From a phage: DNA of 64,000 bases. The DNA lies in the sequence record PQ724392.1; one strand, written 5' to 3'. The notes below the pieces were generated by a model. The model did not search any database. It saw only the letters and a list, made by a program, of their open reading frames with translations, and was not told the origin of the DNA. Positions 1-62,129 of the stretch are shown one piece after another; positions within the stretch are counted from its first letter, which is position 1; each line of letters opens with the position of its first letter. The translations under genes were made by a program, and so were the position numbers.

Positions 1-2025
1 AGTGGTAACCCAAAAGCTGTTTGTTATAAGATGGATGCAATTGATGGTGAAGTATTTGCATTAATCACGGGGGAAGTAAAAGAAGAGCGACAAGACCCGA
101 CTAAACCTGAAAACGTTGTCGATTCGTTATCTAAGGGCGTTTATAAATTAAATGCTGACACCGATACATGGACACGAGTTTTTGGTAACACAGAGGATGA
201 ACGTCGACGTATTGAACATGGTTACACAAGCATGTCAACCGACGGAATTGAACTTTTTATCAGTTCAAGTAACTTCCGTTATTCCGTAGAGCCGGATACT
301 GAACTCCCTGCTAAGTATCCTGAAGAAGTTAACGAAGCAGTCAAATATGTGTATGACGAACAATGGATACATGACAAGCATTATTTGATGATGAGTTTTA
401 GGTCGAATAAAGATTCAGGTTGGGAAGAGTTTAAACCTGGCCGTATGTCATATTACGCTGAACCGTTCTTTAACTGGTCTCGTCGTGATGATACTCGTTG
501 TTGGATTACTACGTCAGACAGAGCTCTGGTTGTATATAATGACATGCTATATCAAAAGATTATCGATACCTTTGGTGGTTCATCCCCTGAACGTATTGTA
601 CACGAATACTGGAATAAAGGTCAAGTAAAAGTTACTTCTCCTAACATCGAATTCAATGGCTTTAAAAAATACGCCTCGGGTATTATGTTACACAAAAATA
701 CTGGAGAGCTTATTGGTTATTTTGAATTTGACTATCGTAAACGTGATGAAGTTAGATTAATCTGGAAACCGAAAGAAGTTATGTTCACTGCAGAATTACA
801 GAACCAGGAACATGATATTCCATGGACCCCAGATAATGACGAACAAGAGAAAGACCCAGACTTGCGTCCTCTTTTAACAAAGATGGTTCCGGATAGTTAT
901 TTGCTCCAGGATAGCAACTTCGAAAAATTCTGTGAATATTATTTGCAGTTTATCAGTGATGGCTCTGGTACCTATTATAACAACCTTTTGAACTTGATTC
1001 GCAACCAGTACCCGCGCGAGGAAGATGCATGGGAATACCTTTGGAGCGAAATGTACAAAAGAAACATATATTTGTCAAAGACCAAGCGCGACGAAGTAGT
1101 TCGTTTCTTTGAAGCAAGACAGTCTGATTTTTGGGCAACTAAGGGGACTGAAGCATCCTATAAATTTTTGTTCAAATTGTTATATAATGAAGACGTTGAA
1201 ATCGATATTGAATCCAAGAACGGAACCGAGTATGACATAATCGTCGAATCTGATAACATCAGCGAAGATATTGTTGGACAAACAATTTACACACCAACTG
1301 GTCGCAGTAACGTTACCTATATGGAACGTGACTACAAACAGGGTAAATTGAGATGGCGTATCACGATTCATAACTTACTTGGTCGCTTTATTGTTGGGCA
1401 AGAAATTAAATCCGAAAGGACTTCCTTTGAAGGCATGATTGTTCAGGGTGTTCGTGGGAAAGAATTACTTAGCAACAACATCGATTATATCAACCGAAAT
1501 CGTTCTTACTATGTAATGACCATTAAATCAAGTCTCCCAACATCTCGTTATCGTAATGACGTATTGCGATTTGTTCATCCGGTTGGATTTGGATTCGTTG
1601 GAATTACATTATTGACAATGTTTGTTAATGCAGGTCTGTCATTAAAACATACAGAAACCATTATCAATAAACTGAACAACTATCGTTGGTCGTCAGGTAT
1701 TCCGTCAGAATGGTGCGACCGTATCGCAGTTATTGGGGCCGATGGAAACATTGAGCATAGTCCTGTTACAGGTGAAGCAGTATATAATATTGCTCCTAAT
1801 GCAGGTTTACCATTCCCATTACCAGCAGATTATGATGCCGAAAACGATTTTTCGGATTTTCATGGGACTCTCCCGTCTGAACGTCGTAAAAAATACAGTC
1901 CATTGTTTGACCAGTCTGCCGTGACTTTTGCTAACTGGCGCAATTTGGTTAATCAACGTCTTAAGGATGATATTGGTAATCCACGCGACCCGAAAGAACC
2001 CACACAGGTAAAGGTAAATGAATAA
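1..2025 (+). CDS. 7: Baseplate wedge protein gp7, C-terminal ~670 codons; the frame is open to the window edge, so the gene is 5'-truncated
   Basis: Frame-1 ORF with no stop from base 1; lies directly upstream of gp8-gp12 in T4 order; T4 gp7 is ~1032 aa. Confidence 0.75.
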   Translation, partial: SGNPKAVCYKMDAIDGEVFALITGEVKEERQDPTKPENVVDSLSKGVYKLNADTDTWTRVFGNTEDERRRIEHGYTSMSTDGIELFISSSNFRYSVEPDTELPAKYPEEVNEAVKYVYDEQWIHDKHYLMMSFRSNKDSGWEEFKPGRMSYYAEPFFNWSRRDDTRCWITTSDRALVVYNDMLYQKIIDTFGGSSPERIVHEYWNKGQVKVTSPNIEFNGFKKYASGIMLHKNTGELIGYFEFDYRKRDEVRLIWKPKEVMFTAELQNQEHDIPWTPDNDEQEKDPDLRPLLTKMVPDSYLLQDSNFEKFCEYYLQFISDGSGTYYNNLLNLIRNQYPREEDAWEYLWSEMYKRNIYLSKTKRDEVVRFFEARQSDFWATKGTEASYKFLFKLLYNEDVEIDIESKNGTEYDIIVESDNISEDIVGQTIYTPTGRSNVTYMERDYKQGKLRWRITIHNLLGRFIVGQEIKSERTSFEGMIVQGVRGKELLSNNIDYINRNRSYYVMTIKSSLPTSRYRNDVLRFVHPVGFGFVGITLLTMFVNAGLSLKHTETIINKLNNYRWSSGIPSEWCDRIAVIGADGNIEHSPVTGEAVYNIAPNAGLPFPLPADYDAENDFSDFHGTLPSERRKKYSPLFDQSAVTFANWRNLVNQRLKDDIGNPRDPKEPTQVKVNE

Positions 2026-3086: not shown

Positions 3087-3956
3087 ATGATTAATCAAAC
3101 CCCAAAATTATTAGTAGACATCGGCGAGATTGGTAACGCCAGCACCGGTGATATTCTATATGAAGGCGGTCGTAAACTGAACGTGGATTTAGACAGTTTG
3201 TATAATACATTTGGCGACCAGCGTCTGTACTCTGTGAACAATGGAGAAAACACCCAGGTCCTTCATGCGACTGGGTACTATCAAAAAGCTACAAATATCA
3301 TCGAATGGAACTCAACTGTTGCTCTCGGTTCTATGCGTGATGTCAATACTGCCGAAGGTGTTATCACTGCAAGAATTGCAAAAGGTAAAGCAGGTGAAGG
3401 TGTTATCTTTATTAACTCCAATGGTTCATTATCTACCTCGATGCCTCTGGAAGTTGAACTACAAGGCACGGATTCATTCCTGACCGCTGCAACGAACAAA
3501 ATGAAATTTACTCAGCCTTATACAAAAATTACATTGTGGTGTATTGACGATGCTAACGGCGTAGGGACCTGGGACTACAAAATTGAAAGTATGTTTGGTA
3601 ACCAATCTGTATTGCTCGACAAAACATACAATATGAGCTCGGTTGTTCGTGATATTCCAATCGCTTACCGCGCAGATTATAAAACTATCAAATTGATGCT
3701 TACGGCTATTTCAACAGACGAAACTAAATACAAAGCATCAGAAATGTTACTTTACATCGACCTTAAGGACCGCAAGGTATATAGCACAGAATACGCTGTA
3801 ATCAGACGTGGACAAGCTAACGACGATGATGAGATATATGCTATCGATTTTAGAATTGATAACCAGGATATCATACAGGCGGCTATAAGCTCACCCACTG
3901 CCATGAAGCTCGCTATTAAAGTAATTTCCGCCCAAACAATCGGAGTACCGGTATAA
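3087..3956 (+). CDS. 9: Baseplate wedge / long tail fiber socket protein gp9
   Basis: 289 aa (T4 gp9 288 aa); preceded by a terminator and a TATAAATA late promoter; Shine-Dalgarno upstream. Confidence 0.8.
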   Translation: MINQTPKLLVDIGEIGNASTGDILYEGGRKLNVDLDSLYNTFGDQRLYSVNNGENTQVLHATGYYQKATNIIEWNSTVALGSMRDVNTAEGVITARIAKGKAGEGVIFINSNGSLSTSMPLEVELQGTDSFLTAATNKMKFTQPYTKITLWCIDDANGVGTWDYKIESMFGNQSVLLDKTYNMSSVVRDIPIAYRADYKTIKLMLTAISTDETKYKASEMLLYIDLKDRKVYSTEYAVIRRGQANDDDEIYAIDFRIDNQDIIQAAISSPTAMKLAIKVISAQTIGVPV

Positions 3957-5767
3957 TGAAACAGAATTTAAAAATTGGCAATATGGTTGATGATGGTACT
4001 GGTGATTACCTTCGTCTCGGCGGTCAAAAAATAAATAATAACTTTGATGACCTTTATTATCAGCTAGGGGACGGTGAAAATCCCCATGCAGCTGGTGCAT
4101 GGAAAACTTGGACTACGCAAGAAGGCACCGAGTTGTCCGCTGTTATGGGTCGAAGCTATACCATCGATACATCAGCCGGTGCAGTTCGAGTTATCCTTCC
4201 AAAAGGAACAACTCAAGAATACAATTATGTAATTCGCTTGCGTGATGTGTTTGCTACCTGGCAAATCAACCCGGTGACAATTGTTCCTGCAGTTGGGGAT
4301 ACGATTAAAGGCTCACCGAATCCAGTAGAAATTAAACGCAACTTAGCCGACCTTGAACTTGTATATTGTTCACCCGGTCGTTGGGAATATATCGATAATA
4401 AACAAGTCGATAAAATTTCAAATAACGACGTTGCCACAGTTGCATCCCAACAGTTTATTGCCACCGAAGGACAAACTGACTTTATCAATGTGTTTGGTGC
4501 TATTCCATATAGCGTATCGAACTTAGAAGTCAAACATCGTGGTAACGACCTGTTTTATGGTAAAGATGATATTTTCGACCCGGTGAATGCTGAATTTGGT
4601 TCCCCTGGTGCAAACCCTGGTGAAATCGTTGCGCTTGATGGTAAAAGCATCCGTCTGAAAATGCCATGTGCTGAAGGTGATACTGTTATCATCCGAACAT
4701 TTAATGATGGTATTGCTCAATGGCGTAGTTCGTATAATCGTCGTGATATACTTGTTCGTAGTCAAGACAGGACCAAAGAAACAACAATTAATGGTTCTTT
4801 GATTGTTACAGATTTGACAACCAAACACACCTTTACAATTGAAGAACTTGGTATTTCTCCGGGTAGCCCAATTAACCCAAACGCATGTCAGGTATTCATT
4901 AACAGTATTTTGCAACATCAAGCTGGTACTGCGGGAACTCCAGTATTTTATTGTGAAGGTGCACAAGGTTCTACTGCTGCAGAATGTAGTGCAAATGGTG
5001 GTAGCTGGTCTGAATCAAACCAGGATTATTTGCTGCAATTTGATGATGATAACCGTATCGAAGGCATTAGCATTTACCGTGAATTTGAAGACGGTGATAT
5101 TCTGTCAGTCATTTGGTACAATAACGATATCGGCACAACTATGACCATGGATGAAATCCGTGATGAGACTGATACTCTTTATGTTTCTCAGGGAAATACG
5201 TTGAGCCTAACCGGTCGTGTGCGTATTACAGATTTTGATAATCCGTTTGCACCAAACGTTGAACCAGTCGGTCTTCAGGAAGTTGTTCCATCTTCTGTTG
5301 GCGCTATCTTTGAATTATTCTATCCGGTCGGTACAATTTACGAAAATACGGTTAACCCAAATAACCCGGTTACTTATATGGGATTTGGTTCATGGAAACG
5401 TTTGAAAGAACGTGTAATTGTTGCCTGGTCAGACGACCCTGCCTCAAACTTCCATACAAACAATAATGACCTGGATTCTGGTGGTAACCCACAAGCGACA
5501 GCAGGTGGTACAGGTGGTAGCGTTGAAGTTCATATTAAAGATATAAACGTACCTAAACTTGAAACTGATGAGAAGGTTTTAGTTGTTGATGATAATGGTC
5601 CGATTGTTGTCGGTGGTTGTCAGGTAGACCCAGATGCACAAGGTCCAGCCTATACCAAATACAGAGAAGACAAAGCCACCATTAATCAGGCGCAAGACCC
5701 TCAAGCTCAACCGGTTTATACAATGCCTCCATATTTGATTGCTCATCGCTGGGTAAGGATTGCTTAA
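3956..5767 (+). CDS. 10: Baseplate wedge protein gp10
   Basis: 603 aa (T4 gp10 602 aa); TAATG overlap with the gp9 stop. Confidence 0.8.
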   Translation: MKQNLKIGNMVDDGTGDYLRLGGQKINNNFDDLYYQLGDGENPHAAGAWKTWTTQEGTELSAVMGRSYTIDTSAGAVRVILPKGTTQEYNYVIRLRDVFATWQINPVTIVPAVGDTIKGSPNPVEIKRNLADLELVYCSPGRWEYIDNKQVDKISNNDVATVASQQFIATEGQTDFINVFGAIPYSVSNLEVKHRGNDLFYGKDDIFDPVNAEFGSPGANPGEIVALDGKSIRLKMPCAEGDTVIIRTFNDGIAQWRSSYNRRDILVRSQDRTKETTINGSLIVTDLTTKHTFTIEELGISPGSPINPNACQVFINSILQHQAGTAGTPVFYCEGAQGSTAAECSANGGSWSESNQDYLLQFDDDNRIEGISIYREFEDGDILSVIWYNNDIGTTMTMDEIRDETDTLYVSQGNTLSLTGRVRITDFDNPFAPNVEPVGLQEVVPSSVGAIFELFYPVGTIYENTVNPNNPVTYMGFGSWKRLKERVIVAWSDDPASNFHTNNNDLDSGGNPQATAGGTGGSVEVHIKDINVPKLETDEKVLVVDDNGPIVVGGCQVDPDAQGPAYTKYREDKATINQAQDPQAQPVYTMPPYLIAHRWVRIA

Positions 5768-43473: not shown

Positions 43474-43752
43474 TTAGTCGTTGACTCTATTATATGCCAC
43501 GTCTTCCAAAAGCAAATCCAGCCGCTTATGATAAGTGAACACAAATTTAGTTGCCCCGTCTGGTTTCATTTTGGTCATGAAGTGAATATAGATAAATCCT
43601 TGCTCAACGCATTCACGCCAAACGGGGTTATCTTTAGCCGGATTAATATCAAACGAGTAATTATGATTCACATGACGAATAAACTGATTAACATGACCGT
43701 AATCCATCGTGGTAGTTGGACCACGGTCAGAAATAGTATGAACGACAAACAT
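43474..43752 (-). CDS. Hypothetical protein (92 aa)
   Basis: Track ORF begins at TTG 43755; the ATG at 43752 overlaps the upstream stop (TGATG coupling). Confidence 0.45.
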   Translation of the reverse strand: MFVVHTISDRGPTTTMDYGHVNQFIRHVNHNYSFDINPAKDNPVWRECVEQGFIYIHFMTKMKPDGATKFVFTYHKRLDLLLEDVAYNRVND

Positions 43753-44576
43753 CAATTACCCCCTTGGCCACCGGTCGGTTGATTGTACCAGTATTCAATA
43801 CCAGTACCTACACGCTGGCCATATTGATATGGATATGCTGGATTATATCCAGGAGTCCACGGTTGACCAGGCTGCCAGCCTTGCTGCATTTGTTGTTGAA
43901 GGCGTCGAGTTTCACGAAACAGCTCTTCCAGTTTACGGAGTTCATCTGGAGTGAATTCTGGTTTGACCGGTTCATCTTTGTGTTTCAGTTTAAGCTGTCC
44001 AGCAACATCGTCCCAATTAAAAACTTTGGAAGCTGTTTTAGGAATAGCATCACGTTCGCCGCGGGCCATCCAATAAACCGGAACCTCAAGAATTTCACTC
44101 GCATGGTCGCAATGGTGTGCAAGGTCATCAATATAACAAATGACATTATATTTGTCTTTTGCCTTCTGAAACAAATCCTCTTTAGAGGCTGTATGACCAC
44201 ACATCATCACTTCTTTAAACGCCCCAGGGAACAAAGCATTCAGGTTGAATTGACGATTCAGGCGAGCATCAATAGAATCACCCAGGGCTGTAACAGCCAC
44301 AAAATCATATTGCTCTTTGAGGTTATTGATAACCCTTAATGCATCCGCATAAGGAGACAAATAGCGAATAAAGTCTGAACAGTTATATTTTTCAATTAAC
44401 TGCGCGCCTAACTCTTCATCACAATTGAAAAGTTTACCAGGGGTCACAAATTTTTCATCCTGAATCATCTTAAGGATATGTTCCAGGGGTAAATTATATT
44501 TTTGGGCGAAATAAGGTAAGCCAGACTGCCATGACAAACATACGCCATCAATATCTGTTAAAATAACGGGTTTCAT
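43752..44576 (-). CDS. HAD-superfamily hydrolase-like protein with Q/P/Y/G-rich low-complexity C-terminal tail
   Basis: N-terminal HAD motif I (VILTDIDGV) and a DD motif (YIDDLAHH); C-terminal ~50 aa rich in Q, P, G, Y, W; ATGA-coupled to the upstream NADAR-like gene. Confidence 0.55.
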   Translation of the reverse strand: MKPVILTDIDGVCLSWQSGLPYFAQKYNLPLEHILKMIQDEKFVTPGKLFNCDEELGAQLIEKYNCSDFIRYLSPYADALRVINNLKEQYDFVAVTALGDSIDARLNRQFNLNALFPGAFKEVMMCGHTASKEDLFQKAKDKYNVICYIDDLAHHCDHASEILEVPVYWMARGERDAIPKTASKVFNWDDVAGQLKLKHKDEPVKPEFTPDELRKLEELFRETRRLQQQMQQGWQPGQPWTPGYNPAYPYQYGQRVGTGIEYWYNQPTGGQGGN

Positions 44577-45031
44577 AATGCATCTCTCAATTGGTTAAGT
44601 ATGTCAATAAATTCTTGTTCAGTCAATATTGTATCATGAACAGTAAGGTGGCTCGCCATCGAATGCTTTAAAACTTTGCCTTTTGTGGATTGTAACGCGT
44701 CGCGAAACCCCCTGTTTTGGAGCGCTGCTTCAAAATATGCATTTGTATACAACTCTTTCCATGCTGCAGAGTATCTTGAAAAGGGAATTCCAAGCCAGAA
44801 AAGCGTCCCACGGTCCGCAGCTCTTGCATAAGCTCTTCCACTTTGCTGGGCGGCCAATCCGGACATCCCAAATATACGTTTTTGTTGTTCAACATTTCTC
44901 ACCTTGCACCCTTGTAGGAAGCCTTCAAGACCTCCAAACTGGATACCCTCCATAACAAAAGGCCATTTGGCAAAGTTACTTAATGCGCATGATGGCCACG
45001 GAAAATTGCTTCTTATTTCTAACTCAGACAT
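44573..45031 (-). CDS. NADAR/YbiA-like (DUF1768) domain protein, candidate ADP-ribose-processing hydrolase
   Basis: Motifs collinear with E. coli YbiA: LSNFAKWP (YbiA FSNFAAWP), GLEGFLQGCK (SEHYFQAQK), ...FRDALQSTKGKVLKHS (LRALLLATAPAKLVEH). Start placed at the internal ATG 45031 (8-nt overlap with the upstream ORF); an alternative start at 45106 would add a hydrophobic N-terminus. Confidence 0.55.
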   Translation of the reverse strand: MSELEIRSNFPWPSCALSNFAKWPFVMEGIQFGGLEGFLQGCKVRNVEQQKRIFGMSGLAAQQSGRAYARAADRGTLFWLGIPFSRYSAAWKELYTNAYFEAALQNRGFRDALQSTKGKVLKHSMASHLTVHDTILTEQEFIDILNQLRDAL

Positions 45032-45236
45032 CTTTGACACTGATAATATCCACATCAGCCCAATGACCATAACCAGGTAGACGGTCTTTAATAGATAATC
45101 CGCCATCAGATTTCAGCATTTTAATTGTTTTAGTATATGGTTCAATATTTCGGGCCCATGGACTTACATCAGTCACGCGATAAGTAACTTCGACCATTTC
45201 TGTTCCCAAAATTTTCTGAATCAGTTTCTTAAACAT
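45024..45236 (-). CDS. Hypothetical protein (70 aa)
   Basis: ORF in the coupled operon downstream of gp30. Confidence 0.4.
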   Translation of the reverse strand: MFKKLIQKILGTEMVEVTYRVTDVSPWARNIEPYTKTIKMLKSDGGLSIKDRLPGYGHWADVDIISVKDV

Positions 45237-57200: not shown

Positions 57201-59456
57201 TCAAAGTTTACAGGCAGAGCAGTCTTCTGCTTTAGGAGCTTCGATTTCGTAATCGTCTGTACCAGAACCATCTCTAGTGTTATGATAATAAAGGTTTTTA
57301 CCGCCAAAATACCAGAAGTACATCAAGTCGTCAAGCATAACTGACATCGGAACTTTTCCTTTCGGATAATTCTGCGGGTCGTAATAGGTATTGGCTGATG
57401 CTGACTGGCAAATCCATTTCAACATAATCGCGACTTGGGTCAGATAAGGTTTGTTACCTTGCTTAGCTAATACCCATGCGTAATCGTACAATCCTTTATT
57501 GTGCTCGATATTTGGAACAACTTGATTAAAGGAACCTTCTTTAGATTCTTTAATACTTACCGGACCACGCGGAGGTTCGATACCGTTTGTAGAGTTGGAA
57601 ACTTGACTGCTCGACTCGCAAGGCATGAGCGCAGATAAGGTGCTATTACGGATGCCGTGTGCAACCAGGTCTTCCCGCAGCAGCGCCCAGTCACAAACGT
57701 AGTTTGGAGCTGCGATTTGGTCAATCTTTTTATTGTACCAGTCGATAGGTAATTCGCCTCGAGCCCAACGAGTGTCTGAATAATATTCGCAAGGTCCTTT
57801 TTCTTTGGCGAGCTTAATTGATGCACGGATAAGGCCATATTGTAATCTCTCAAACAGTTCATGCGTTAAATCGTTTGCATCGGCATAGGAAGCGAAATTG
57901 CTTGCCAACCATGCAGCATAGTTAGTAACCCCGACACCCAGGTTGCGCCGTTTTTTGGCTTTCAGAGCTTCTTTAACCGGATAACCCTGGTAGTCCAACA
58001 GATTATCAAGAGCACGAACTTGTACTTCGGCCAGCTCGTTAATTTTATCTTGGTCCTGCCAGTCAAAACTATCCAGAACAAATGCAGACAATGTGCACAA
58101 TCCGATTTCAGCATCTTCGCTGTTTACATCAGCGGTCGGGATTGCAATTTCGCAGCAAAGGTTTGATTGACGAATTGGAGCCTTATCACGGATGAACGGG
58201 GTGTAGTCATTCACGTTATCAACGAACTGTGGATAAACCCTGGCTGTCCCGGAACGTTCGGTCATGAATAATTCAAATAAATCTTTTGCTTTGATGCGCT
58301 TCTTACGAACCGTCGGGTCTTTTTCCAAGGCTTCGTATAACTCACGGAATTTATCCGGGTTATCAAAATATGAATAATATAATTCACCACCGGCTTCGTG
58401 TGGACTAAACAGAGTGATGTAATCATTCTTGGCCAGTCGTTCCATCATCAGGTTATTCAGCTGGACGCCATAGTCCATATGTCTGATGCGGTTTTCTTCA
58501 ACACCCTTGTTGTTCTTCAGAACGAGTAAATTTTCAACTTCCAAATGCCAAATAGGATAATAAGCAGTAGCAGCGCCGCCACGGATTCCACCTTGTGAAC
58601 ATGATTTAACAGCCGTTTGGAAATGCTTCCAGAACGGAATAACACCAGTATGCTTGACTTCGCCCATACCGATTTTCGAACCTTCGGCACGAATCATGCC
58701 AACGTTGATGCCGATACCTGCACGCTTACTGATATATTCGATGATTGAGTTAGCAGTCTTATTGATTGACTTCAGGGAGTCAGCAGCTTCGATAACCACA
58801 CACGAACTGAACTGCCGGGTAGGTGTTCTGGCACCCGCCATGATAGGTGTGGGCAACGAAACCTGTTGCGTGGATACTGCATCATAAAAACGGCAAACAT
58901 GCTTCAGGCGGTCCGTTGGTTCATCCTGGTGCAGTGCCATGCCGATAGCCATGATGGCGAACTGTGGAGTCTCATAGATTTTCCCAGTGGTTTTATCTTT
59001 AACCAGGTATTTCTCTTTAAGCTGCATCGCGCCTGCATAAGTCAGGTCAAAATCGCGTTCGTGCTTAATACGAGATTCCAGGTAAGTAATCTCTTCAGCT
59101 GAGTAGCTTGACAACAGCTCTGGGTCATATTTACCTTCATTAACACAATAAGAAATCTGGTCAATAAAAGAACGTGGCTCAAACTGGCCATAAACATCTT
59201 TACGCAGAGCAAACATCGTAGCTTTGGCTGCAACATATTGGTAATCTGGTTCTTCAACCGAAATAAGCCCAGCAGATACTTTGATGATAACCGTCTGAAT
59301 ATCGCGAGTAGTCATACCATCGCGCAGATGTGGTTTGATTGTTTCGTATAATTCATACGGGTCGATATTAGTTCCTTCGCATGACCAGGAAAGAACTTTA
59401 ATAATTTTCTGGCCATCAAAATCTTGAGATACACCACTACTTTTTTGTACTTGCAT
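57201..59456 (-). CDS. nrdA: Ribonucleotide reductase large subunit NrdA
   Basis: 751 aa (T4 NrdA 754 aa); class Ia RNR large-subunit organization including the C-terminal CxxC tail (...EDCSACKL). Confidence 0.95.
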   Translation of the reverse strand: MQVQKSSGVSQDFDGQKIIKVLSWSCEGTNIDPYELYETIKPHLRDGMTTRDIQTVIIKVSAGLISVEEPDYQYVAAKATMFALRKDVYGQFEPRSFIDQISYCVNEGKYDPELLSSYSAEEITYLESRIKHERDFDLTYAGAMQLKEKYLVKDKTTGKIYETPQFAIMAIGMALHQDEPTDRLKHVCRFYDAVSTQQVSLPTPIMAGARTPTRQFSSCVVIEAADSLKSINKTANSIIEYISKRAGIGINVGMIRAEGSKIGMGEVKHTGVIPFWKHFQTAVKSCSQGGIRGGAATAYYPIWHLEVENLLVLKNNKGVEENRIRHMDYGVQLNNLMMERLAKNDYITLFSPHEAGGELYYSYFDNPDKFRELYEALEKDPTVRKKRIKAKDLFELFMTERSGTARVYPQFVDNVNDYTPFIRDKAPIRQSNLCCEIAIPTADVNSEDAEIGLCTLSAFVLDSFDWQDQDKINELAEVQVRALDNLLDYQGYPVKEALKAKKRRNLGVGVTNYAAWLASNFASYADANDLTHELFERLQYGLIRASIKLAKEKGPCEYYSDTRWARGELPIDWYNKKIDQIAAPNYVCDWALLREDLVAHGIRNSTLSALMPCESSSQVSNSTNGIEPPRGPVSIKESKEGSFNQVVPNIEHNKGLYDYAWVLAKQGNKPYLTQVAIMLKWICQSASANTYYDPQNYPKGKVPMSVMLDDLMYFWYFGGKNLYYHNTRDGSGTDDYEIEAPKAEDCSACKL

Positions 59457-59489: not shown

Positions 59490-59735
59490 TTAAATTGTCT
59501 CTGGTAGTTCCGAAGTCATTTCATCATTATATTCTTCTTCTGACTGGACAGTGATGTCAAAATATGACTGGACATCACCGGCTGAATCATGACAGTAGAC
59601 ACGTTCATGTCGTTTGGCCAGAAATTTGATTCCGTCAATAGTGATATAAGAATTTGGTGCAGGTAAATCCTGTTCGGTAAATTGTGGCATTTCAAAAATG
59701 ACTTCGCCTGATTGGCGTTTAAATCGTAAATTCAT
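59490..59735 (-). CDS. Hypothetical protein (81 aa)
   Basis: ORF between td and nrdA; position corresponds to the T4 nrdA.1/nrdA.2 region. Confidence 0.4.
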   Translation of the reverse strand: MNLRFKRQSGEVIFEMPQFTEQDLPAPNSYITIDGIKFLAKRHERVYCHDSAGDVQSYFDITVQSEEEYNDEMTSELPETI

Positions 59736-59794
59736 AATTTCCTCTCATTAAATTTTAAATAATTATATCACGGTGTCCTGAAGCGGAATCGTAT

Positions 59795-60094
59795 TTATGT
59801 ACCCAAATCCTCGAGCGAAAAGGTATCTTTGAAAAGTTTATTAACGACCAGAGCGATAACATCACCATGGCATGCTTTCGGTTTGCATGTACAAGCTAAT
59901 CGCATTCCGCGAAGGGTTTCAAGGTGTTCTCTTTTGATTTCACCCGATTTAATCTTTGATATGAAATATTCTTTAAAGTTCTTTATATTTTCTTCTCGGG
60001 TACCATCTTTGTATGGGTTTCCCCACATGGTACCCCGTTGAATATTCACATCAAAGTCGGATTGATATTTGTTAACAACCCGACAGGCTTTCAT
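59795..60094 (-). CDS. DUF4326-like small protein (99 aa)
   Basis: Motifs WGNPY, GTREE and LRG..L.C.C.PK.CHGDV match the DUF4326 family pattern as recalled; preceded by a sigma70-like promoter around 60100-60150. Confidence 0.5.
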   Translation of the reverse strand: MKACRVVNKYQSDFDVNIQRGTMWGNPYKDGTREENIKNFKEYFISKIKSGEIKREHLETLRGMRLACTCKPKACHGDVIALVVNKLFKDTFSLEDLGT

Positions 60095-60155
60095 AGTAGG
60101 AAGTTAAGTCCGACCATTATGGCCAGAAATAAAATACCGGCAATTTGAATTTTCA

Positions 60156-60352
60156 TTAGACCTCGACAATAAACCAGATAGACCGATTGAAATCATCGTA
60201 TTCATACGATTTAATCACACGCATAACATAAAGTTCTTTGTTCTGGACAAAAATCGTTGTTTTCTCTTTAGGCAGTTCATCGAGACTTATATTCATTTTT
60301 TCAAACAGCACCTCATTGGTGCCGTATCTATTGTTTACTATACGAATATTCA

Positions 60353-60353
<1 letters not shown>
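60156..60353 (-). CDS. Hypothetical protein (65 aa)
   Basis: ORF with its start immediately downstream of the td stop. Confidence 0.35.

Positions 60354-62129
<1,776 letters not shown>

Follow-up and report, generated by a model that had tools for sequence, protein, structure and literature searches.

Positions 59,795..60,094 (minus strand) of the window, by which we denote the whole 64,000-nucleotide stretch of phage record PQ724392.1, harbor nrdA.1, a gene encoding a 99-aa protein that consists of a single standalone DUF4326 domain. Judged from protein identity and gene order, it is established as the Gaprivervirus ortholog of T4 nrdA.1. The function of NrdA.1 is a prediction, for which we follow the published context: the protein may be a module that binds or processes ribose phosphates and is expressed from the frd-td operon, a reading that we consider quite possible though short of probable. 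An earlier sequence-only reading of this DNA had picked out the gene correctly; gene and family were already known, an identical protein has been deposited, and the window adds nothing new on nrdA.1. The interpretation given there was mostly right, and it was wrong on the promoter.

DUF4326 is among the larger uncharacterised protein families of phages, and one copy resides in the model phage T4. Neither a solved structure nor an assay was found for the family, and a literature search for biochemical or genetic data on any DUF4326 protein or on T4 nrdA.1 found none. If the published prediction is true, the family would represent a new enzyme class on the phage side of NAD-centred immunity. A role in counter-defence, to which we return below, is directly testable, T4 carrying the gene.

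The nrdA.1 gene and its expression

The start of nrdA.1 is unambiguous: an in-frame TAA is located four codons 5' of its ATG, so that no earlier start is possible. The translation contains all motifs that had been listed for the 99-aa ORF, i.e., W24-G-N-P-Y28, G31-T-R-E-E35, L61-R-G63, and L66-A-C68-T-C70-K-P72-K-A-C75-H76-G-D78-V. The assignment to DUF4326, made from this pattern, was borne out by the Pfam profile PF14216, which matches with an E-value of 7e-22 and 78.3 bits (gathering cutoff 25 bits) over profile positions 1-81 of 82. PHROG 464 matches NrdA.1 as well (E 4.6e-45). By these profile scores, the family match is far above chance. Both DUF4326 motifs, GNP(F/Y) and C-x-C-x-P-x-x-C-H-G-D, are found in NrdA.1, and their columns are 88-100% conserved among 276 domain instances.

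T4 NrdA.1 (NP_049846) and NrdA.1 of the window share 68% identity over 98 aa (E 2e-48). Synteny is preserved, with nrdA.1 located between td (60,353-61,213) and nrdA (57,201-59,456; both from the ORF list) on the same strand of an frd-td-nrdA-nrdB block. As frd and nrdB lie on either side of the td-nrdA.1-nrdA stretch, the position that had been claimed for the gene within a nucleotide-metabolism block holds. The source genome is that of a T4-like Gaprivervirus (Tevenvirinae). Phage DK-13 is 98% identical in its local DNA and encodes a protein 100% identical to NrdA.1 of the window; some GenBank records label the gene "NrdA-1-like" or "similar to T4 NrdA.1". Homologs of NrdA.1 were detected by tblastn in 2,131 of 50,697 phage records (about 4%). 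A profile search among 1.84 billion representatives (E <= 0.001) returned 17,072 DUF4326 clusters at 50% identity, and the family is present in giant viruses, too. PADLOC gave no match for the gene.

Two divergent NrdA.2-like paralogs flank nrdA.1. The upstream gene, orf65 (60,156..60,353, minus strand; phrog_2458, PHROG E 4.1e-17), encodes 65 aa and is coupled to the stop of td (TAATG). The downstream gene, located between nrdA.1 and nrdA (59,490..59,735, minus strand), encodes an 81-aa NrdA.2 homolog (DUF5496; PF17600, E 6.6e-11) and has its own GAGG Shine-Dalgarno sequence. With 37% identity, the latter protein is the closer of the two to T4 NrdA.2; its counterpart is missing in phage VR20. 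The 59-nt spacer downstream of nrdA.1 contains a promoter-like AGGACA-16-TAAAAT and an exact TATAAT at 59,752-59,779 (minus strand). These elements precede the NrdA.2 homolog and nrdA, and are not upstream of nrdA.1.

A sigma70-like promoter of its own had also been ascribed to nrdA.1, and this claim did not survive. The site in question, TTGCCG-16-CATAAT (60,143..60,116, minus strand), matches at 9 of 12 positions, which is a chance-level match: six comparable sites were observed in the region versus 4.5 +/- 2.0 in shuffles. Its -10 hexamer is not conserved in the close relative EAWsc9, which reads CGTAAT in place of CATAAT, and a conserved micro-ORF encloses the site. We judge it to be an unsupported promoter.

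This unannotated micro-ORF (60,091..60,156, minus strand) comprises 21 codons for the hydrophobic sequence MKIQIAGILFLAIMVGLNFLL and fills the 61 bases that separate the upstream gene from nrdA.1; EAWsc9 and VR20 both have a conserved copy. The changes between window and EAWsc9 are four synonymous and two conservative ones. The micro-ORF has a GAGG Shine-Dalgarno sequence 5 nt upstream, and none was found before nrdA.1 itself. It shares bases with both neighbors: the ATG with the stop codon of the upstream gene (TAATG), the TGA with the start codon of nrdA.1 (ATGA). Along the chain, the overlaps frd/td, td/orf65, orf65/micro-ORF, and micro-ORF/nrdA.1 amount to 4, 1, 1, and 4 nt, respectively. 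From this arrangement, the micro-ORF is probably a translational coupler of nrdA.1. Because nrdA.1 has no Shine-Dalgarno sequence of its own and belongs to a chain of overlapping genes, it most likely shares a transcript with frd-td and is translated through coupling. The gene would then most likely be without a promoter of its own and form the last member of the chain frd, td, orf65, micro-ORF, nrdA.1.

A small hydrophobic ORF upstream was considered as a general companion of DUF4326 and rejected, as it was found at 0 of 87 standalone DUF4326 genes versus 8 of 368 controls. Since none of these 87 other genes has one, the micro-ORF is lineage-specific. An echo of it is seen in the Shigella phage Ag3 (Ackermannviridae; locus 3837-4327), whose NrdA.1 homolog follows gp46/gp47: the gene of a 54-aa membrane protein with two TM segments overlaps the start of the nrdA.1 homolog by 4 nt.

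The NrdA.1 protein and related families

An AlphaFold2 model of NrdA.1, computed from a 41-sequence alignment, is confident (pLDDT 94.2, pTM 0.85) and shows a compact alpha/beta protein. Residue placement was read from the modelled secondary structure, which consists of a strand (5-8), a hairpin (approximately 16-22), two helices (33-50 and 55-59), a second strand (65-68), and a helix (76-87). The R-G-x-x-W-G-N-P-(F/Y) loop (codons R20-Y28; 60,011..60,037, minus strand) falls on the short hairpin after strand 1. The Cys/His cluster C68-x-C70-x-P72-x-x-C75-H76-G-D78 (codons L66-D78; 59,861..59,899, minus strand) extends from the strand end across the loop to the start of the helix: C68 closes strand 65-68, residues 69-75 form the loop, and C75 and H76 open helix 76-87.

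All conservation values refer to 276 DUF4326 domain instances and to the residue numbering of the window protein. The Cys/His cluster of the sequence-only reading, a putative metal site, is confirmed as conserved, with C68 at 100%, C70 at 99%, C75 at 100%, and H76 at 100%, accompanied by P72 (99%), G77 (97%), and D78 (95%). In the N-terminal half, R20 (98%), G25 (97%), N26 (99%), P27 (88%), R33 (89%), N8 (94%), and D15 (94%) stand out. In alpha/beta enzymes, active sites are carried in the loops that follow the main strands. According to the model, the invariant residues N8, D15, R20, N26, R33, C68, C70, P72, C75, H76, and D78 would cluster in just such loops after the two main strands, and the two arginines among them may point to a phosphorylated ligand.

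Comparisons with solved structures gave no lead: the PDB sequence search with the DUF4326 family profile returned spurious TPR-repeat matches only, and Foldseek found no match in the PDB. A cysteine at a strand end, followed by a loop and a helix, is a trait of rhodaneses and Cys-phosphatases and is present in the NrdA.1 model. The C-X5-R(S/T) phosphatase signature is absent from NrdA.1, as the sixth residue after C68 is A74, the sixth after C70 is H76, and the loop contains no arginine.

Weak matches to PF22751 (DUF488-N3a, the 'active' subclade) were obtained from 18 of 62 DUF4326 proteins. The hhalign alignment of the two families extends over 54 columns (E 3e-4, probability 40%) and pairs LGCfCkPxxCHGD of DUF4326 with LLCSEHkPHhCHRR of DUF488-N3a. 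On the basis of these alignments, we regard a putative link between DUF4326 and DUF488 as moderately supported. For RapZ, hhalign was not significant, neither against one RapZ-CTD sequence nor against 80 of them; in the latter case only N-P-(F/H) was aligned. Judged from these profile comparisons, a link of DUF4326 to RapZ and the phosphatases is not independently supported here.

ComFB was examined as a further candidate, its zinc ligands being C25, C27, C30, and C88 (PMC4381287). The spacing C68-x-C70-x4-C75-H76, putatively zinc-loop-like, is present in NrdA.1 and invariant in DUF4326. The sole NCBIfam hit of NrdA.1 is a weak match of residues 62-87 to ComFB, with a sub-threshold score of 16.7 bits versus a cutoff of 120. 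We take this as a common motif rather than homology, and membership of NrdA.1 in ComFB was rejected.

Fusion partners, gene neighbors, and the NADAR gene

Fusions of DUF4326 with the domains SLOG, Macro, and NADAR have been reported by Iyer, Burroughs, Aravind, and co-workers (PMC7824862, PMC9503650). Our own census of 42 long DUF4326 homologs independently recovered the published fusion partners. SLOG domains, usually located N-terminal of DUF4326, were found as YAcAr (7), mSLOG (5), and DprA-like (3) variants, these counts overlapping in part. NADAR and a DarT1-type NADAR occurred once each, as did RNase H, Dam, PolA, a 3'-5' exonuclease domain, and RNA polymerase. In addition, DUF4326 is repeated in tandem within one polypeptide, with three copies in P0123 and two each in P0127, P0155, P0193, and P0235.

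For a view of gene neighborhoods, IMG/VR was scanned with a degenerate DNA motif, which yielded 120 loci, 109 of them with a DUF4326 ORF. No conserved neighbor family emerged, as the nearest neighbors in these 109 viral loci share almost no sequence families. By Pfam, the neighbors include Metallophos (5), 5'-3' exonuclease (4), PolA (3), N6/N4 methylase (3), and thymidylate synthase (3), followed by RtcB, Rnl1, Macro, RNase H, and dCMP deaminase with two each. The neighborhood is a mixture of replication, nucleotide-metabolism, and RNA-repair genes that is heterogeneous across viruses. On three further contigs, DUF4326 is located amid arrays of small unknown genes.

Adjacency to ribonucleotide reductase (RNR) genes takes three forms: td-nrdA.1-nrdA in T4 and in the window; nrdA-nrdB-nrdA.1-denA-rnlA, where nrdA.1 overlaps the end of nrdB, in Lw1 and K14-2 (loci 3471-3782 and 3468-3797); and nrdD-nrdA.1-nrdG in the jumbo phage Ecwhy_1 (locus 3983-4309). 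In Ecwhy_1, Lw1, and K14-2, the nrdA.1 homolog is relocated, yet it is still pressed against RNR genes. As a general property of DUF4326, this adjacency was rejected: among 255 neighbor proteins from the 109 IMG/VR loci, RNR subunits were found in a single T4-like locus only. It is thus real but limited to large myoviruses, T4-like and related.

A lambda-like prophage (IMG/VR UViG 2871755987_000002; 297-1977, minus strand) carries, beside a terminase gene, an operon of three genes whose stops and starts overlap. The operon encodes a DuOB dual-OB protein (1321-1977), DUF488-N3a (884-1321), and an mSLOG-DUF4326 fusion (297-887), so that DUF488 and DUF4326 stand side by side.

The sequence-only reading had suggested, with some doubt, an association of DUF4326 with NADAR domains in other genomes. 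Such fusions are indeed reported in two published analyses (PMC9503650, PMC7824862), and they account for one or two of our 42 long homologs, which makes NADAR a minor fusion partner compared to SLOG. The "NADAR-like gene" placed about 15 kb away proved to be a true NADAR: it matches PF08010 (gp30.3), and 5 of 120 homologs also match the NADAR profile PF08719. Its longest ORF spans 44,573-45,106. Because homologs cover only 84-86% of this ORF, the start is probably M26 (45,031), and the gene would then occupy 44,573-45,031. It is located 14.7 kb from nrdA.1 and not adjacent to it, beside an Alt-type ADP-ribosyltransferase. This placement fits the published pattern of T4-like phages, in which NADAR genes are early genes alongside ARTs (PMC9503650). 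A functional link between nrdA.1 and the NADAR gene would be an extrapolation from the fusions in other genomes. NrdA.1 itself was considered as a NADAR (PF08719) and rejected in fold and profile comparisons, hhalign against gp30.3/NADAR being not significant.

The stop of the NADAR gene is overlapped by the start of a 274-aa ORF (43,752-44,576, minus strand), which begins with MKPVILTDIDGV, a DxDG motif like that of HAD phosphatases, and has a low-complexity tail rich in Q, G, P, and Y at its end. No Pfam match was found for this ORF at E <= 0.01. Motif and overlap mark its product as a candidate phosphatase, with the ORF possibly coupled to the NADAR gene.

Proposed function and comparison with known systems

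DUF4326 has been published as part of a RapZ-C/DUF488/DUF4326 branch of the rhodanese-phosphatase superfamily, and is predicted to act on terminal ribose phosphates of ADP-ribose derivatives, or on DNA ends (PMC9503650, PMC7824862). Following this superfamily assignment, we propose that NrdA.1 would bind a phosphate attached to ribose and remove or transfer it. We were led to ribose-linked phosphate chemistry by the published assignment together with the recurrent fusions to SLOG, NADAR, RNase H, Dam, and polymerase domains. Candidate substrates would be a small molecule derived from ADP-ribose or a nucleotide, or else a nucleic-acid end, and the activity could serve early nucleotide and NAD housekeeping of the phage or counter-defence. 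The site is envisaged to be formed by the invariant residues in the loops that the two main strands lead into. The Cys3-His cluster may fit a nucleophile or a metal site alike, and both readings may coexist. Residue conservation, the confident model, the similarity to DUF488 together with the prophage operon, and the replication, nucleotide-metabolism, and RNA-repair neighbors also count in favor of the proposal. Against it speak the missing CX5R signature, the empty Foldseek search, and the non-significant RapZ-CTD comparison; no conserved gene neighbor that would indicate a substrate was found, and a zinc-binding loop would likewise present a C-x-C-x4-C-H cluster.

A purely structural role of the cluster has to be weighed against this proposal. 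In that case, NrdA.1 would bind a protein or nucleic acid as a small adaptor or regulator, held together by a zinc site, with no catalytic role and no phosphoesterase chemistry. The joint conservation of C68, C70, C75, and H76 is what such a site would require, as is the His or Glu opposite C70 in DUF488-N3a, both being metal ligands, too; NrdA.1 is merely 99 aa long and lacks the arginine of CX5R, and residues 62-87 weakly resemble the C25-x-C27-x2-C30 zinc loop region of ComFB (PMC4381287). However, this resemblance is a motif only, given its score far below the ComFB cutoff, and the neighboring C75 and H76 would seldom both ligate one ion. A zinc site also leaves unexplained the invariance of N8, D15, R20, N26, and R33, which are distant from the cluster in sequence, and the recurrent fusion to enzymatic nucleotide-processing domains. 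These residues and fusions would instead favor a catalytic or ligand-binding pocket, and we consider the structural role unlikely. Equally unlikely, in our estimate, is that NrdA.1 acts specifically on nucleic-acid ends, removing or transferring the terminal phosphate of DNA or RNA in phage DNA modification, repair, or replication. For members of the RapZ-C/DUF488/DUF4326 clade, Burroughs and Aravind (NAR Genom Bioinform, 2023) reportedly predict DNA-end processing in their abstract. Fusions with RNase H, Dam methylase, family A DNA polymerase, the 3'-5' exonuclease domain, and RNA polymerase point the same way, as do the PolA, N6_N4 methylase, 5'-3' exonuclease, RtcB, and Rnl1 neighbors, the DuOB protein in the prophage operon beside the terminase gene, and the position of the gene directly ahead of denA, rnlA, and pseT in Pseudotevenvirus and Slopekvirus. 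On the other hand, by far the commonest fusion partner is SLOG, a domain for small molecules of the nucleotide/ADPr type; some of the polymerase 'fusions' may be gene-calling artefacts in metagenome assemblies, and a nucleic-acid-binding surface of NrdA.1 is hypothetical.

Gene order by itself would suggest an accessory of RNR or of the T4 dNTP-synthesising complex, e.g., a thiol/redox or assembly factor, for which the three invariant cysteines would be suitable and which would account for the contact with RNR genes in three different arrangements. Yet this linkage is gone outside T4-like and related large myoviruses, with RNR in one of 109 viral loci; in Ag3 and several further phages, the gene is located apart from RNR; and RNR, thioredoxin, and glutaredoxin domains are never fusion partners among the 42 long homologs. 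We therefore regard an RNR accessory as very improbable. A bolder version of our ribose-phosphate proposal casts NrdA.1/DUF4326 as a counter-defence enzyme of a type not recognised before, with an unusual Cys3-His active site for which no structural relative has been solved. The enzyme would eliminate or recycle some ribose phosphate that host NAD-based immunity produces, in one pathway with phage NADAR (gp30.3) and the ADP-ribosyltransferase Alt. Its target may be a signal derived from ADP-ribose or a breakdown product that arises when NAD is depleted. This version is speculative, and we deem it decidedly unlikely.

Among the known systems closest to NrdA.1, but outside the family, is the 'active' N3a subclade of DUF488 (PF04343 / PF22751). 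Both families share an L-x-C-x-(C/E-H)-K-P-x-x-C-H loop that leads into a helix. In contrast to DUF4326, DUF488-N3a has His or Glu at the position of C70, and its Cys-His pair is followed by Arg-Arg instead of Gly-Asp; the alignment does not extend to the N-terminal halves, and the overall similarity stays below family thresholds. The anion pocket of RapZ-CTD is formed by H190 (in PNPHW) together with T248, G249, H252, and R253 (in CTGGKHR). In the RapZ C-terminal domain (PDB 5O5S/5O5Q), this pocket resembles the combination of WGNP(F/Y) and Cys loop in DUF4326, as an analogy only. NADAR domains (YbiA, PDB 2B3W; 8BAU; T4 gp30.3) are found fused to DUF4326 in other genomes.

Several differences separate the window from T4. 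T4 NrdA.1 (108 aa) has 8 additional N-terminal residues and continues with Y-V after WGN, where the window protein has P-Y. In T4, nrdA.2 is located upstream of nrdA.1 and overlaps it, whereas the closer NrdA.2 homolog of the window is located downstream. Unlike in T4, the upstream junction of nrdA.1 in the window is spanned by the 21-codon micro-ORF. Compared with the fused forms published for DUF4326, NrdA.1 of the window represents the minimal version of the family, a standalone domain without a fused partner.
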